Shown: positions 23,239 to 31,297 of the stretch, one piece after another
How the letters are laid out: the number at the start of each line of letters is the position of its first letter
Position numbering within the stretch: the stretch's first letter is position 1
Assembly: GCA_945883755.1 (NCBI GenBank)
Contig: CAMCXX010000002.1
Coordinates: 42,775 to 106,774, forward strand
DNA: 64,000 nt
Source: Bifidobacterium breve
GTDB lineage: Bacteria; Actinomycetota; Actinomycetes; Nanopelagicales; Nanopelagicaceae
Reading direction: 5' to 3'
Program-made: the position numbers and the translations under genes
The notes under the pieces: generated by a model
Database searches by the model: none
Told to the model about the DNA's origin: nothing
Seen by the model: the letters and a program-made list of their open reading frames with translations, nothing else

Positions 23239-24078
23239 ATGCCGGAGTTGCCAGAGGTTGAAACTGTACGAGCTGGACTTGCCAAGTATGTAATTGGCAA
23301 AAAGATTTTAAGTGCAGCAACCCTCCACTCCAGAGCACTTAAGCCAGCCTCAATTGCGCCAGTTTCTGCATTAATCGGTAGCAAAATCTTGGATGTAAAG
23401 CGAAGAGGAAAGTTTCTTTGGTTATCGCTAGATCGCCCAATCTGCCTAGTTGTACACCTTGGTATGAGTGGGCAGTTATTAGTGCAACCGAGCACAACCA
23501 GAGCTCATAAGCACCTGCGAGCAGAGTTTGGTTTATCAGCGAGTAGATTTGCCAAGCCAGGAGATCAACTTAGATTTGTTGATCAACGTACCTTTGGTTG
23601 GGTAAGTGTTGAAGAGTATGTAGGTGATGTACCAAGCTCTGTTTCGCATATTGCACTGGATCCATTTGAGGAAAATTTTGATCTATCGGCAGCAATTACA
23701 AGGATTAAAAAACGAAAATCTGCGATAAAACCAACCTTGTTAAATCAGGAGATTATTAGCGGGATTGGAAATATTTATGCCGATGAGGCGTTGTGGCGCA
23801 GCAAGATTCATCCAGAGATAATCTGCGAAGATTTAAGTAAAGCGGAGATAAAACGGATTATTAATAATGCGGTAGCGGTAATGCGGGAGGCGATTGATGC
23901 TGGTGGTACCTCATTTGATGAGCAGTATAAAAATGTAAATGGCGAGAGTGGGTACTTCGAAAGATCACTCGCCGTGTATGGCCAAGAGGGTGAGCCATGC
24001 CCCAGATGTGGCAGCGCAATCGCCAGAATCGCCTTTGCTAATCGCTCATCACACCTTTGCCAGCGTTGCCAGCGGTAG
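23239..24078 (+). CDS. mutM: Formamidopyrimidine-DNA glycosylase
   Basis: MPELPEVE, HLGMSG, GIGNIYADE, C-terminal CPRC...CQRC zinc finger. Confidence 0.97.
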   Translation: MPELPEVETVRAGLAKYVIGKKILSAATLHSRALKPASIAPVSALIGSKILDVKRRGKFLWLSLDRPICLVVHLGMSGQLLVQPSTTRAHKHLRAEFGLSASRFAKPGDQLRFVDQRTFGWVSVEEYVGDVPSSVSHIALDPFEENFDLSAAITRIKKRKSAIKPTLLNQEIISGIGNIYADEALWRSKIHPEIICEDLSKAEIKRIINNAVAVMREAIDAGGTSFDEQYKNVNGESGYFERSLAVYGQEGEPCPRCGSAIARIAFANRSSHLCQRCQR

Positions 24079-24118: not shown

Positions 24119-27100
24119 ATGTATTTGAAGAGTATGAATCTGAAGGGGTTTAAATCCTTCGCCTCTTCGACCACTCTAAATTTTGAACAGGGCATTACCT
24201 GTGTCGTCGGTCCAAATGGTTCTGGAAAATCAAATGTAGTTGATGCCCTCTCCTGGGTAATGGGAGAGCAAGGTGCCAAATCTTTGCGCGGTGGCAAGAT
24301 GGAGGATGTAATTTTCGCCGGCACAAGTGGACGTGCACCCCTTGGTCGGGCAGAGGTCTCGGTAACAATTGATAATACCGATGGTGTGCTACCAATTGAT
24401 TTTGCTGAAGTAACTATTACCCGTGTCTTGTTTAGAAATGGTGCATCTGAGTACCAGTTAAATGGCGAAACAACTCGTTTACTTGATATTCAAGAGTTGC
24501 TAAGTGATAGCGGTATTGGTCGAGAGATGCATGTAATTGTCGGACAAGGCCAGTTAGATGCAATTTTGCTGGCAAATCCAGAGGAGCGCAGAGCTTTTAT
24601 TGAGGAAGCGGCTGGTGTATTAAAGCATCGAAAGCGCAAAGAGAAGGCGATTAGAAAATTAGATTCAATGCAAACAAATTTGGCACGTATCCAGGATCTA
24701 ACTGTCGAATTACGGCGTCAATTAAAACCACTGGGCAAGCAAGCTGAGGTTGCTCGTAAAGCTTCGATCATTCAATCTGATGTACGTGATGCAAAGCTTC
24801 GCTTGTTAGCTGATGATCTAATTACCTTGAAAAATTCTTCAAGCGTGGAGGAGGCGGATGAAAACTCATTGCGCGCTCGCAAAGAGTTGGTTGAATCTGA
24901 GTTAGAAAGCATGCGCTTACGTGAGGAACAGCTGGATTTAAACTCAGCTACCGAAAATCCATTACTAGTAAAAGCGCAAGAAAATTTCTATCGATTAACA
25001 GCGCAACGTGAGAAGTTTCGCGGAATTCAAAATCTTGCATCAGAGCGCGCCCGATTTTTATCGGAAGAGGCGGAGGAGGCTCGATCTGCCGGTCGTGATC
25101 CAGATGCCCTCGATGCTGAAGCAAAGATTCTCCGTGGCGAACAACAAAGCTTTGAACGAGATTTAAATGCTGCGCAATCACAATTATTTATTGATACCAA
25201 TGCGCTAAAGGAGATTGAAGAGAAGTTATCACTCGAAGAGAGTTCAGTATCTGCCTCTCTTCGCGCAATTGCTGATCAACGAGAAGGAACCGCTCGACAA
25301 GAGGGTCACATCAACGGCTTAAAATCTAGAATTGATGCAACAAATGCAGAGGTAACTCGATTAACAACTGCCCTAAATGAAGCAAACTCAAGATTGAAGG
25401 GGTACCAAGAGGATTTTGCATTACTAGAAACTCAGATTGCAAGTGTTGGCGCAGCTGAGCCCGGGCTTGATTCGCAATTTGAAAATGCTAAGCGCGAGCT
25501 AGCAAGTGCGGAAAACCTTTTCGAGCAGGTTAAAGAGCGCCGCGATGCAGCTGAAAAATTACGTGCTGGTTCACTTGGTCGGTTATCTGCGTTTAAAGAG
25601 ATCGTAGATCTAGTTCGCACTTCAAATAATCCTGATTTAATCGCAAAGATTGATTCCTTGACCACAACCTCTGAGAGTGAGGTCGGTAAATTATCTGCAG
25701 ATTGTGATCGAATTAAATTTGAGATTACCTCAGCCCAGGATGTAATCGCTGCTACCCAATCAAATTATGATCAATTGTTAGCAAAATTAAATGAATCTGA
25801 TGCGCGAATGAATGGTTTAGCAGAACAGATGGCGGTAGCTGGACAGAATGTGAAGAGTGCACATGCAGAGATTGAACGTTTGGTTTTATCAATAACTGAG
25901 GCCACTGGCCAACGCACATCTGATGAACGTGATTTAACCGCTGCAATCTCACAATTTGAGTCACAATCTGAACCACGAGAGCCAGATTTAACTCATCTCG
26001 AGGATTTAAGAACTCAAGTATCCAATGCTCGCTCAAAAGAGGTTGAATCACGGTTGCACCTTCGAACAGTTGAAGAGCGGATCACCGCAATTTCACAACG
26101 TGCACAATCATTGGAGGATGCAGCTCAAGTAGAGCGCGATTCTGCGAGCAAAGCGATTTCAAGAAGAGATGCTCGTGCAAAGGCGGCAATCACCGCACAA
26201 CAAATAGCAGATGCTGCTTATGAAGCTTTAATTCAAATTGAATTATCTATCTCAAAAGCGGGTGCAGAGAGAGAACGATTAGAGCAATCTCGAACTCAAC
26301 GCGAAGGTGAAATTTTAAGTATTCGTGGTGCCAGCCGTGAGTTAGCAATTGAGCTTGAGCGATTGACCTCAAGTGTTCATAAAGATGAGATTGCTCGAGC
26401 CGAGCAACGACTACGAATCGAGCAGTTAGAGATCAAGACGGTAGAGGAGCTAGGTGTTGATGTTGCAACACTGATCGCTGAATACGGTCCTAATAATGAT
26501 GTACCAACATTTATCGAAAATGAAGAGGGTGAGTTTGTACCAGGAGATCTGATTCCATATCGCCGTGAACAACAAGAGAAGCGGTTAGCACAAGCAGAAC
26601 GCTCATTAACCTTGCTTGGAAAGATTAATCCACTTGCCTTAGAGGAGTACTCATCACTCGAGGAGAGACTTCGTTACCTAGCTGAGCAGTTAGAGGATTT
26701 AAAGAAAACTAAACGTGATCTGCTAGAGATAATTAAAGAGGTAGATGATCGAGTTCAAGAGATATTTACACAAGCCTATGAAGATACCGCTCGTGAGTTT
26801 GAGTTAGTTTTCGCCAGATTATTCCCAGGTGGCGATGGTCGTCTAATTTTGACCAATCCTTCAGATATGTTGACTTCAGGAGTTGATGTTGAAGCACGAC
26901 CACCAGGAAAACGAGTAAAACGTTTATCACTTCTATCAGGTGGTGAGCGATCACTTGTTGCGGTTGCCTTACTGATTGCGATTTTTAAAGCTCGTCCTTC
27001 ACCATTTTACGTAATGGATGAGGTCGAAGCAGCACTTGATGACACAAACCTAGGAAGGTTGCTCGGTGTTTTTGAAGAGCTTCGCGAAAAATCCCAGTTA

Positions 27101-27226
27101 ATTGTGATCACTCACCAGAAGCGAACAATGGAGATTGCCGATGCTTTGTACGGCGTAACGATGCGCGGTGATGGCGTATCCGAGGTTATCTCGCAACGTA
27201 TTCGCGAAGTTGATGCTGTCTCTTAA
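24119..27226 (+). CDS. smc: Chromosome segregation protein SMC, apparently lacking the hinge domain
   Basis: GFKSF, Walker A GPNGSGKS, LRGGKMEDVIF, Q-loop GQGQ, signature LSGGE, Walker B/D-loop MDEVEAALD, ITHQ; fpg-smc-ftsY synteny; only 1035 aa. Confidence 0.93.
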   Translation: MYLKSMNLKGFKSFASSTTLNFEQGITCVVGPNGSGKSNVVDALSWVMGEQGAKSLRGGKMEDVIFAGTSGRAPLGRAEVSVTIDNTDGVLPIDFAEVTITRVLFRNGASEYQLNGETTRLLDIQELLSDSGIGREMHVIVGQGQLDAILLANPEERRAFIEEAAGVLKHRKRKEKAIRKLDSMQTNLARIQDLTVELRRQLKPLGKQAEVARKASIIQSDVRDAKLRLLADDLITLKNSSSVEEADENSLRARKELVESELESMRLREEQLDLNSATENPLLVKAQENFYRLTAQREKFRGIQNLASERARFLSEEAEEARSAGRDPDALDAEAKILRGEQQSFERDLNAAQSQLFIDTNALKEIEEKLSLEESSVSASLRAIADQREGTARQEGHINGLKSRIDATNAEVTRLTTALNEANSRLKGYQEDFALLETQIASVGAAEPGLDSQFENAKRELASAENLFEQVKERRDAAEKLRAGSLGRLSAFKEIVDLVRTSNNPDLIAKIDSLTTTSESEVGKLSADCDRIKFEITSAQDVIAATQSNYDQLLAKLNESDARMNGLAEQMAVAGQNVKSAHAEIERLVLSITEATGQRTSDERDLTAAISQFESQSEPREPDLTHLEDLRTQVSNARSKEVESRLHLRTVEERITAISQRAQSLEDAAQVERDSASKAISRRDARAKAAITAQQIADAAYEALIQIELSISKAGAERERLEQSRTQREGEILSIRGASRELAIELERLTSSVHKDEIARAEQRLRIEQLEIKTVEELGVDVATLIAEYGPNNDVPTFIENEEGEFVPGDLIPYRREQQEKRLAQAERSLTLLGKINPLALEEYSSLEERLRYLAEQLEDLKKTKRDLLEIIKEVDDRVQEIFTQAYEDTAREFELVFARLFPGGDGRLILTNPSDMLTSGVDVEARPPGKRVKRLSLLSGGERSLVAVALLIAIFKARPSPFYVMDEVEAALDDTNLGRLLGVFEELREKSQLIVITHQKRTMEIADALYGVTMRGDGVSEVISQRIREVDAVS

Positions 27227-27236
27227 AGTTTAATTG

Positions 27237-28073
27237 ATGAGCTTGTTCAAGCGTTTACTTAACGCGGTTAAAAGTGGATCAACCACTGAATCTGAATGGA
27301 ATGAGATTAGAAGTAACTTAATTGATTCAGATCTTGGAGTTAATTTAGTTGATCAACTTATTGCAGTAGCGAAAAAGAGTAAGCCCAATGATGCACAGAG
27401 TGCGATTACAAATGAGATTACAAGTTGGCTCAGTACTAAATCCAGGGAGATTACTCCTGGCAATGCTGGGCTAAATCCAGTTTTACTCGTAGGAATTAAT
27501 GGAACTGGTAAAACAACTACAACTGCAAAGATCGCAAATTACCTGCAGCAAAGTAAATATAAAGTAATGCTGGCGGCGGCAGATACATTTCGCGCAGCAG
27601 CGGTTGAACAGCTGCAAAGCTGGGGGCAACGGTTAGATATTCCAGTTATTGTTGGTAAACCAAATAGCGATCCAGCAGCCCTGGCCTTTGAAGCGACTAA
27701 AGCAGCAATAGAATCAAATATTGATTATCTGTTAATTGATACCGCTGGCCGATTGCACACCAAAGTGGATTTGATGGATGAGCTTCAAAAGGTAGTTAGA
27801 GTGATTGAGAAACAGAGTCCGATCAAGGAGATTCTCTTAGTCATTGATGCCACCACGGGACAAAATGCAATTGCTCAAGCAAAGAGTTTTATTGCGCTGG
27901 CACAGATAACTGGATTTGTGATCACAAAATTAGATGGCAGTGCAAAGGGTGGAGTGGCGCTAGCTATCGAGCGGGAGAGTGGGTTACCGATCAAATTTAT
28001 TGGGGTAGGTGAGGCGGTAGGGGATTTGCAGCCATTTAATTCAGCGGATTACATAAGATCACTCCTCAATTAA
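27237..28073 (+). CDS. ftsY: SRP receptor FtsY (minimal NG form)
   Basis: GINGTGKTTT, DTFRAAA, DTAGR, TKLDGSAKGG; no N-terminal acidic or membrane extension. Confidence 0.95.
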   Translation: MSLFKRLLNAVKSGSTTESEWNEIRSNLIDSDLGVNLVDQLIAVAKKSKPNDAQSAITNEITSWLSTKSREITPGNAGLNPVLLVGINGTGKTTTTAKIANYLQQSKYKVMLAAADTFRAAAVEQLQSWGQRLDIPVIVGKPNSDPAALAFEATKAAIESNIDYLLIDTAGRLHTKVDLMDELQKVVRVIEKQSPIKEILLVIDATTGQNAIAQAKSFIALAQITGFVITKLDGSAKGGVALAIERESGLPIKFIGVGEAVGDLQPFNSADYIRSLLN

Positions 28074-28138
28074 CAAGGATTTAACACAACAGCGCTTTTT
28101 GTGATCTACCTGAAACCATATCGGTGAGCGCCTGTAAC
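28070..28138 (+). promoter_or_regulatory. Putative GlnR boxes upstream of amt
   Basis: TTAAC-n6-TTAAC (28070-85), GTGAT-n6-GAAAC (28101-16), and GTAAC (28134-38) in 11-bp phase with the latter; resembles the actinobacterial GlnR consensus gTnAc-n6-GaAAc. Confidence 0.6.
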
Positions 28139-28198
28139 CCTGCCAGGTAATGATCTGCCCTATCTCAACGAGGAGAAACTCCCAACAATCGGAGATTT

Positions 28199-29838
<1,640 letters not shown>

Positions 29839-29857
29839 TCTAAGTAAGATAGCAGTT

Positions 29858-31297
29858 ATGTTTGAAGCGCTAGGTCAGAGATTTACCAAGGTATTTTCTG
29901 GCCTACGCGGCAAGGTAAGTGAGTCAGATCTAAATACCTTTGCATCTGAGATTAAAACCGCATTACTAGAGTCTGATGTTGCTCAATCTGTTGCCGATAA
30001 TTTCGCTACGCAGATCTTAAAAATTGCGCAGGAGCGATCTGATGAGATTAACAAATCAACAAATCCAGCTCAGAAAATTTTTGAGATTGTTAATGCTCAA
30101 TTAACCCAAACTCTCGGTGGCTCAGCAAGAAGGTTGCGCCATGCTAAGACCGGCCCAACTGTAATTTTGTTAACTGGTTTACAGGGCGCAGGTAAAACCT
30201 CACTTGCTGGAAAGCTTGCCAAGTATTTAAAGGATCAAGGAAATACTCCGTTATTGGTGGCATCTGATTTACAACGCTTAAATGCGGTTACTCAACTGCA
30301 GGTAGTAGGCCAATCAATCTCAGTTCCAGTCTTTGCACCTGAACCAGGCAATGGTGTTGGCGATCCAGTAGCGGTTGCAAAAGCGGGTTTGCAATTTGCA
30401 AAGGATAAAGTTCATAACTTTGTGATAGTTGATACCGCAGGTCGATTGGGTGTTGACCAAGAGTTAATGCAACAAGCAATCAGGGTGCGCGATGCTGTTT
30501 CACCTGATGAAATCCTCTTTGTAGTTGATGCCATGATTGGTCAAGATGCAGTTGTAACCGCAAAAGCATTTGCCGATGGTGTGGGATTTGATGCGGTTGT
30601 TTTAACTAAATTAGATGGCGATGCCCGCGGCGGTGCTGCACTTTCTATTGTTGAGATAACTGGTAAGCCAATCATCTTTGCGGCAACTGGCGAGAAGGTG
30701 TCAGATTTTGATTTGTTTTATCCAGATCGTATGGCCTCTCGAATTTTGGGAATGGGAGATGTTGCATCATTAGCAGAACAAGCAAAACGATCAATGTCTA
30801 GTGATACTGCAGCAAAGCTAGAACAAAAGTTTGCCAGTGGGGATGATTTCACCTTTGCGGATTTCCTCTCTCAACTTGAAGCAATGAAAAGTATGGGCAG
30901 TATGAGCAAGTTAATGGGGTTGTTGCCTGGCTCTGGTGCGATGAAAAAACAGATGGAAAATTTTGATGAGAGTGAGTTGGTACGAACAAGAGCGATTATT
31001 GAGTCGATGACACCTCAAGAGCGAGCTGATCCAAAGGTATTAAATGGTTCAAGACGCGCCAGAATTTCTCGTGGAAGTGGCAGAGCAATTAGTGAAATTA
31101 ACTCATTGGTCGAGAGATTTTCTGGAGCACAAAAGATGATGAAGAAGATGAGAAATGGTGGTATGCCGGCAATTCCTGGAATGCCCGCAATGACTGGTTT
31201 GGGTGGCATGCCAAAAATTTCAAAAAATAATCCACCGCCAAAGAAGAAATCTAGATCTGGAAATCCAGCGAAGCGGGCGGCAGAAGAAGGTAGTTGA
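29858..31297 (+). CDS. ffh: Signal recognition particle protein
   Basis: GLQGAGKT, DTAGR, TKLDGDARGGAALS, Met-rich M domain; ATG 29858 taken as start. Confidence 0.97.
   Translation: MFEALGQRFTKVFSGLRGKVSESDLNTFASEIKTALLESDVAQSVADNFATQILKIAQERSDEINKSTNPAQKIFEIVNAQLTQTLGGSARRLRHAKTGPTVILLTGLQGAGKTSLAGKLAKYLKDQGNTPLLVASDLQRLNAVTQLQVVGQSISVPVFAPEPGNGVGDPVAVAKAGLQFAKDKVHNFVIVDTAGRLGVDQELMQQAIRVRDAVSPDEILFVVDAMIGQDAVVTAKAFADGVGFDAVVLTKLDGDARGGAALSIVEITGKPIIFAATGEKVSDFDLFYPDRMASRILGMGDVASLAEQAKRSMSSDTAAKLEQKFASGDDFTFADFLSQLEAMKSMGSMSKLMGLLPGSGAMKKQMENFDESELVRTRAIIESMTPQERADPKVLNGSRRARISRGSGRAISEINSLVERFSGAQKMMKKMRNGGMPAIPGMPAMTGLGGMPKISKNNPPPKKKSRSGNPAKRAAEEGS

Follow-up and report, generated by a model that had tools for sequence, protein, structure and literature searches.

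A hinge-less chromosomal Smc in a Nanopelagicus-type actinobacterium and a candidate contact at its arm tips

The smc locus and its missing hinge

The window analyzed here (the whole stretch of 64,000 nucleotides (nt) taken from contig CAMCXX010000002.1) carries an smc gene whose product of 1035 amino acids (aa) has lost the hinge, a domain that with one other defines the SMC proteins and whose role (ring closure, DNA gate or obstacle bypass) is still debated. The features of the gene and its protein are collected in Table 1. A sequence-only reading of the same stretch, made without database searches, had placed a hinge-less chromosomal Smc of this length with all head motifs in an fpg-smc-ftsY locus; the list of open reading frames (ORFs) and a motif search confirm this description, the two flanking ORFs being presumably fpg/mutM-like and ftsY-like, by names suggested by their sequences rather than taken from a profile scan.

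The protein is identified as the Smc of Smc-ScpAB by its TIGR02168 score (772 bits against a curated cut-off of 567, the match falling in two stretches) and by a split ABC ATPase head with all motifs, to which a motif search adds an H-switch at residue 999. Across the 29 hinge-less proteins compared, the head motifs are found in 28-29. No hinge was found around residues 475-525 (nt 25541-25693), as the sequence-only reading had stated, nor within residues 450-650 more broadly: Pfam matches SMC_N and gives no match to SMC_hinge (PF06470) even at an E-value of 10, the Smc of a sister genus scoring 63.7 bits for SMC_hinge as positive control, and an AlphaFold2 monomer model (57-row alignment; mean predicted local distance difference test score (pLDDT) of 79) has no beta strand between residues 142 and 790. 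In the model, a helix spanning residues 328-502 passes through a two-residue turn at 503-504 into a helix spanning 505-612, with local pLDDT of 80-92, and the Smc tip is thus predicted to be a plain helical hairpin. Foldseek comparison of the model with the PDB returned SMC-family chains, at a whole-length root-mean-square deviation too high to bear on the tip. Because the central SMC hinge dimerization domain (PF06470) is lacking, the protein is a variant, and not a canonical member, of the Smc-ScpAB family.

At the level of short motifs and single residues, two details of the sequence-only reading need correction. The form of hinge motif used by this family, GD-x7/8-GG, occurs in all 28 hinged proteins and in none of the 29 hinge-less ones. 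The motif whose absence had first been noted, GX6GX3GG, is indeed missing, but it is missing from 28 of 28 hinge-bearing sisters as well, and its absence is therefore uninformative in this family. The absence of a Rad50/SbcC-type CxxC hook holds for this Smc, whose only cysteines are residues 28 and 529, and for its hinge-less relatives (0/29). A zinc hook or disulfide clasp at the tip was rejected on the lack of CxxC and on the conservation of Cys529 in hinged sisters too; Cys518 is present in 14 of 19 hinge-less relatives, with Ser in 4 and Ala in 1. Pro505, put forward as the expected residue of a helical turn, was also rejected as a conserved turn residue, since position 505 is Ala, Ser or Thr in most relatives; Asn504 is kept in 17 of 19.

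Table 1. Features of the smc gene, its product and its neighbors, in coordinates of the window
Feature	Coordinates	Strand	Basis
smc, 1035 aa, hinge-less Smc of Smc-ScpAB condensin	24119..27226	+	ORF, Pfam, TIGR02168
Walker A, residues 31-38	24209..24232	+	motif search; 29/29 hinge-less proteins
Q-loop, Gln143	24542..24550	+	motif search
Ascending (N-terminal) coiled-coil strand, residues 168-502	24620..25624	+	model and alignment; as long as in hinged sisters
Conserved tip patch, residues 479-495, EKLRAGSLGRLSAFKEI; predicted Smc-Smc contact	25553..25603	+	conservation, dimer model
Predicted two-residue turn Asn503-Asn504, site of the 145-residue hinge deletion	25625..25630	+	model, alignments
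First turns of descending helix, residues 505-518; conserved Leu507, Lys510, Ile511 and Leu514 in predicted dimer interface	25631..25672	+	
Descending (C-terminal) coiled-coil strand, residues 505-833	25631..26617	+	model and alignment
ABC signature LSGGE, residues 939-943	26933..26947	+	motif search; 29/29 hinge-less proteins
Walker B and D-loop DEVEAALD, residues 967-974	27017..27040	+	motif search; 29/29 hinge-less proteins
fpg/mutM-like upstream neighbor	23239..24078	+	ORF list; name suggested by sequence
ftsY-like downstream neighbor	27234..28073	+	ORF list; name suggested by sequence

Downstream of smc, the ORFs at 27234-31297 follow the order ftsY-like, ammonium transporter-like, P-II-like and ffh-like, labels that we presume from the sequences. 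There is no uridylyltransferase-sized ORF between the P-II-like and ffh-like ORFs, and the FtsY-like protein is only 279 aa long.

Extent, origin and selective constraint of the deletion

Pairwise alignments of the protein with four hinged sisters are gap-free up to residue 489-497 and gap-free again from residue 510-511, the net loss being 144-149 residues (145 relative to a sister of 1180 aa). The hinge was thus removed by one clean in-frame deletion of 145 residues, and both coiled-coil arms are at canonical full length, as judged from the gap-free alignment to hinged sisters and from the model. Hinged Smc proteins of sister genera (about 1180 aa) are up to 76% identical to the hinge-less one.

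Proteins close to this Smc carry the source names Candidatus Nanopelagicus and acIB-AMD-7, and on these names the host genome (1.0 Mb, 81% complete) is therefore called a Nanopelagicus-type (acI) freshwater actinobacterium. None of 38 genomes of this genus gave a match to Pfam SMC_hinge; only 5 of these genomes are at least 90% complete and 3 are single-contig. In a draw of 150 genomes from the family it was found in 0/16 of the same genus, 0/2 of a second genus (g29) and 129/132 from the other 15 genera. Full-length Smc proteins extracted from the two hinge-less genera are all exactly 1035 aa long with the same junction (29/29), and those from nine further genera in the family all measure 1176-1184 aa (39/39). 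The junction lies in one frame in 22 of 24 same-genus genomes (21 full-length copies and one N-terminal piece), three single-contig genomes included; of the remaining two, one has smc split over pieces and one has no smc match. No full-length sister allele was found in the genus genomes, and the turn is crossed gap-free by contigs of 4/4 sequencing runs from four studies, with 5-10 substitutions in the three runs that come from other studies; the fourth run (X1) may be the source sample.

Within the hinged part of the family, one genome of genus g30 (G053) has two hinge-bearing frames, of 1220 and 1182 aa (hinge hit at G053:C65:25324-25689). The extra frame, and a further match in the same genus (G067:C151:8985-9350), score far above the usual hinge of the family, which suggests a second, foreign smc or contamination.

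In a tree computed by a quick method from 28 rows chosen among the loci examined, with residues 441-570 omitted and Shimodaira-Hasegawa-like approximate likelihood ratio test (SH-aLRT) values as the only support, the 9 sampled hinge-less proteins form one clade (SH-aLRT 99) with a hinged sister group. A tree of the heads only left the hinge-less node unresolved, yet it also nests the hinge-less proteins within the family. Trees and locus together support orthology, that is, vertical descent of the hinge-less Smc from a hinged Smc, and a single deletion in the common ancestor of the hinge-less proteins is the simplest reading of the sequences.

Outside the tip, the median ratio of nonsynonymous to synonymous substitution (dN/dS) is 0.024 in the hinge-less group (range 0.011-0.069; 19 unsaturated of 406 pairs) and 0.021 in the hinged sisters (6 unsaturated of 378 pairs), by Nei-Gojobori counts over pairs that are not independent. 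Judged from these ratios, the hinge-less smc is under strong, unrelaxed purifying selection. Its partners are also retained: ScpA, ScpB and ParB score above cut-off in the own genome, in 3/3 closed genomes of the genus and in a hinged control, and ScpA was found in 2/2 genomes of the second hinge-less genus. The loss of scpAB with relaxed selection that the sequence-only reading had named as a sign of decay is therefore not what the data show, and its core proposal, that of a functional chromosomal Smc that truly lacks a hinge, gains support from the deletion, from selection and from the retention of scpAB.

Two parS-like palindromes about 630 bp apart lie beside parA in the own genome and in 5/5 closed genomes (3 hinge-less and 2 hinged); they were matched against a presumed parS consensus, and further hits with two mismatches number 0-2 per genome against 0-1 for a control pattern. 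Sites of this type were located at G001:C1:1158805, at G006:C1:1220048 and, in the own genome, at G000:C7:8446 and 9074. The site overlapping the parA start has altered central bases in some Nanopelagicus genomes, and the site about 630 bp away keeps its core. A ParA/Soj-like ATPase gene, additional to the parA beside parB, adjoins scpA in hinge-less and hinged genomes alike (own genome, G000:C3:188-1135).

A separately encoded hinge was sought with Pfam SMC_hinge in the own genome and in 38/38 genomes of the genus (three closed), without a match; a tblastn search of the own genome with the hinge of a sister gave a best E-value of 7.5. The SbcC/MksB/JetC-type Walker B family (PF13558) scores above cut-off in 0/5 genomes, a search in which MukB, MksE and MksF were not sought singly. 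Because neither a free hinge nor a PF13558 member above cut-off was found, Smc-ScpAB looks like the only condensin of the genome, as far as the one back-up family searched can tell.

The arm-tip patch and its predicted contact

Among 19 non-redundant hinge-less proteins, residues 479-495 hardly vary, in contrast to both flanks: pairwise identity is 0.92 in the patch versus 0.49 and 0.59 in the flanks, and dN/dS is 0.023 versus 0.072 and 0.155. At sixteen positions of the protein the hinge-less group has a fixed residue that sets it apart from the 28 hinged sisters, and four of these positions are 480, 481, 485 and 486; the enrichment of such changes in the modeled interface described below has a hypergeometric P of 3e-4. 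Through the lineage-specific changes, Ser replaces Leu485, Leu replaces a polar or acidic residue at 486, and Leu also replaces a variable, mostly polar residue at 481; all three new residues adjoin the small residues Ala483, Gly484, Gly487 and Ala491.

When two copies of residues 400-607 were modeled together, the dimer scored 0.55 in three runs, compared with 0.00 for the best of 3 controls; in comparison, 20 of the 30 solved homopairs attain that mark, as does 1 of the 23 single chains. At least 73% of contacts recur between the runs, with pLDDT of at least 83, and the confident interface comprises residues 476-518 and 561. The closest pairs are Gly484-Gly487', Ala483-Ala483', Gly487-Gly487' and Ala491-Ala491', and high conservation is seen in 19 of 27 interface residues versus 23 of 99 others nearby. 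No PDB sequence is close to the modeled fragment, the best match (E 0.005) being a phage coiled coil. The model thus predicts a two-fold contact centered on Ala483, Gly484, Gly487, Arg488 and Ala491 and helped by Leu507, Ile511 and Leu514.

A separate stretch of the arm, residues 346-370 (25154-25228 in the window), shows the largest excess of conservation in hinge-less over hinged proteins (0.33), with Gln355 fixed. It lies outside the modeled fragment and could serve as another contact between arms or bind a partner.

Proposed closure of a ring without a hinge

Engineered SMC complexes indicate what a hinge-less Smc would need. In B. subtilis Smc, growth is normal when the hinge is swapped for a Rad50 zinc hook and loss of dimerization is non-functional; arm length is constrained, and matters for a step after loading (PMC5344682). 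DNA binding by the hinge is dispensable (10.1101/495820). In a Wadjet core that lacks the hinge, extrusion requires a disulfide to hold the tip together, and obstacles then cannot be bypassed; B. subtilis hinge-channel mutants are sick only without ParB, and a single parS suppresses the defects of hinge-substituted Smc (PMC12647877). A hinge-less Smc would therefore need closure of its tip and would be helped by ParB and one loading locus, in keeping with what is seen in this lineage.

The reading we favor, and hold to be moderately probable, is that an Smc kept together with ScpA, ScpB and ParB lost its hinge by the one 145-residue deletion and now closes its ring at the arm tips through the patch at 479-495. 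Each Smc copy would pack this small-residue helix patch against the identical patch of its partner, and an old hinge-proximal contact between arms, already conserved in hinged sisters, would have been remodeled into the only joint at the tip. ParB would still bring the complex onto the chromosome at the parS pair, and loops would still be extruded in the cell. Hinge-gated bypass was likely lost along with the hinge channel, the lack of which leaves no hinge gate, so that obstacles tethered by single-stranded DNA or RNA would no longer be let past; on a chromosome of 1.2 Mb that has a single loading locus this loss may be tolerable. Ring closure by arm-tip packing is itself likely.

Several observations weigh against this reading. 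The dimer is a model only and was fed the same alignment from which conservation was calculated, and conservation and modeled interface are thus not independent; side-by-side placement is common for modeled coiled coils, and solved SMC rods could have guided the model. Hinged sisters, too, show local conservation of the patch (0.70, with 0.42 and 0.47 in the flanks; 0.81 when one genus is taken), and the excess of 0.23 that the patch has in hinge-less proteins (mean 0.06, standard deviation 0.08) is not the highest, the stretch at 346-370 exceeding it. Taken as a whole, the tip (470-540) is evolving more rapidly than the arms (dN/dS of 0.091 and 0.035, respectively). The parS-like pair is shared by hinged sisters, and is therefore at most permissive for hinge loss. 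Finally, Corynebacterium Smc-ScpAB aligns the chromosome arms and yet smc can be deleted without a growth defect (PMC7083940), so a weakened complex could persist; this dispensability may also lower the barrier to hinge loss in actinobacteria. A fair reading of the patch is that it would be an ancestral hinge-proximal arm contact that was remodeled, and not a new domain.

Among the three options that the sequence-only reading had offered, apex-to-apex contact is the favored one, and dimerization through heads and kleisin alone becomes the chief competitor. A functional condensin could lack a dedicated tip joint altogether, its dimer held by heads, kleisin bridge and weak arm-rod contacts, with a tip that opens in each ATPase cycle. 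Seven arm contact regions do contribute to dimerization of a hinge-less B. subtilis Smc (PMC5526789), the patch was conserved before the hinge was lost, and residues 346-370 gained equal or greater conservation. Such an arrangement nevertheless appears unlikely, as confident model contacts are confined to 476-518 and 561 instead of running along the 208-residue fragment, fixed lineage changes cluster at 480-486 with only one (355) in 346-370, and neither an unclosed Wadjet ring (which failed to extrude; PMC12647877) nor a dimerization-dead B. subtilis Smc (non-functional; PMC5344682) worked. Distinctly improbable is a changed job, in which the complex would extrude no long loops and would be selected for a narrower role close to the origin, either as a clamp loaded by ParB or in compaction over short distances: the exact arm length is kept, which in B. 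subtilis matters for a step after loading (PMC5344682), and dN/dS equals the value of the hinged sisters, even though smc is dispensable for Corynebacterium growth (PMC7083940) and a different function has been raised for hinge-less SMCs (PMC12153180).

The third option, a separately encoded protein that caps both tips in place of the hinge, is very improbable. A conserved surface patch could bind such a partner as well as itself, and the own genome is incomplete; against it stand the negative hinge searches described above, which covered SMC_hinge and the hinge of a sister and not unrelated folds, and the lack of any extra gene between fpg, smc and ftsY. That the short gene is an assembly error, a strain lesion or a decaying gene has no observation in its favor and can be dismissed with near certainty: misassembly and strain lesion are ruled out by the one length and junction shared by the full-length copies of two genera and by the contigs from four studies that cross it, and decay by the dN/dS range of 0.011-0.069.

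Compared with the Smc-ScpAB of B. subtilis and Corynebacterium glutamicum, the present system has the same head motifs, arm length, fpg-smc-ftsY locus, ScpA, ScpB, ParB and parS-like sites, and differs in having no SMC_hinge, a predicted two-residue turn and no hinge channel. Engineered hinge-free SMCs (the B. subtilis zinc hook, PMC5344682; the disulfide-closed Wadjet core, PMC12647877) show that an SMC can do without the hinge fold as long as the far end is closed, but they use a foreign dimerization device, whereas here the helices of the arm itself are predicted to provide closure. Rad50/SbcC and RecN are also SMC-like ATPases that form a coiled-coil hairpin and lack the SMC hinge, and RecN dimerizes tip-to-tip. 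This Smc is separated from Rad50/SbcC by the lack of a CxxC zinc hook and by scores of 37-45 bits for Rad50 models with cut-offs of 700-1087, and from RecN by a TIGR00634 score of 57.8 bits (cut-off 407.85) and a length of 1035 aa versus about 560 aa; a separate weak match on contig C26 of the own genome is probably RecN.

A close counterpart in print is a cluster of hinge-less SMCs from marine Actinomycetes, published in 2025, which likewise has neither hinge nor CxxC and replaces the normal SMC (PMC12153180). The sequence-only reading had foreseen a different condensin architecture, and the novelty implied there is reduced by this publication. The marine cluster is divergent from cultured organisms and lies near the base of actinobacterial SMCs, whereas the Smc described here is from a freshwater lineage and nests beside hinged sisters. 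The nesting of this Smc in its own family (SH-aLRT 99-100) argues for a separate loss in Nanopelagicus, whose Smc would be an independent case of a recently described type. 'Nanopelagic' does not occur in the main text of PMC12153180, and the portions examined hold no analysis of partner genes, selection or a dimer interface. Literature searches, which were not exhaustive and also missed the 2025 marine paper, returned no report of hinge loss in this lineage or of a naturally hinge-less bacterial Smc; the type is already published, and this loss and its candidate tip interface were not found in print. A preprint on lake metaHi-C names Nanopelagicus (10.64898/2026.02.18.706586).

Hinge loss is also seen elsewhere in Actinomycetota. 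In a draw from the phylum SMC_hinge was found in 235 of 301 genomes, with 0/21 in family f25, 0/22 in f36 and 0/2 in f44. Five f25 genomes (G285, G242, G197, G212 and G271; loci L112-L116) have an Smc of 1018-1028 aa whose tip aligns to that of Nanopelagicus with a two-residue gap and has a similar small-residue stretch before the turn, breakpoint and arm length being almost those of the Nanopelagicus protein although the family is unrelated; the two f25 proteins scanned have no Pfam hinge, and ScpA is kept in 3/3 genomes tested. The f25 proteins form a separate clade (SH-aLRT 100) outside the Nanopelagicus class, and are 37-40% identical to Nanopelagicus Smc; transfer of the tip from f25 was considered and is unlikely because of this low identity and the separate clades. 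Shorter hinge-less Smc proteins occur in f44 (885 aa; G207, L092:2026-4680) and in f36 (772 aa; G222, L093:2211-4526).

It may tentatively be proposed, with less confidence than ring closure by the tip patch, that the protein represents a natural minimal condensin with an Ala/Gly-rich helical clasp made from an old arm contact, a design reached at least twice in Actinomycetota with full arms and nearly the same breakpoint, in which bypass was traded for a smaller motor under a single parS locus. If so, hinge loss would be a repeatable route in cells with a single parS locus. The value of the case lies in its close hinged sisters and its concrete candidate tip interface, and not in a first report of the type: hinge-less Smc and hinged sisters form a close natural matched pair. 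Their arms are equally long, and what sets them apart is a single deletion plus a few substitutions, which point to a specific contact in place of the hinge. This pair opens to test whether the ring must close at its tip, whether arm helices alone can suffice, and what the loss of the hinge gate costs.

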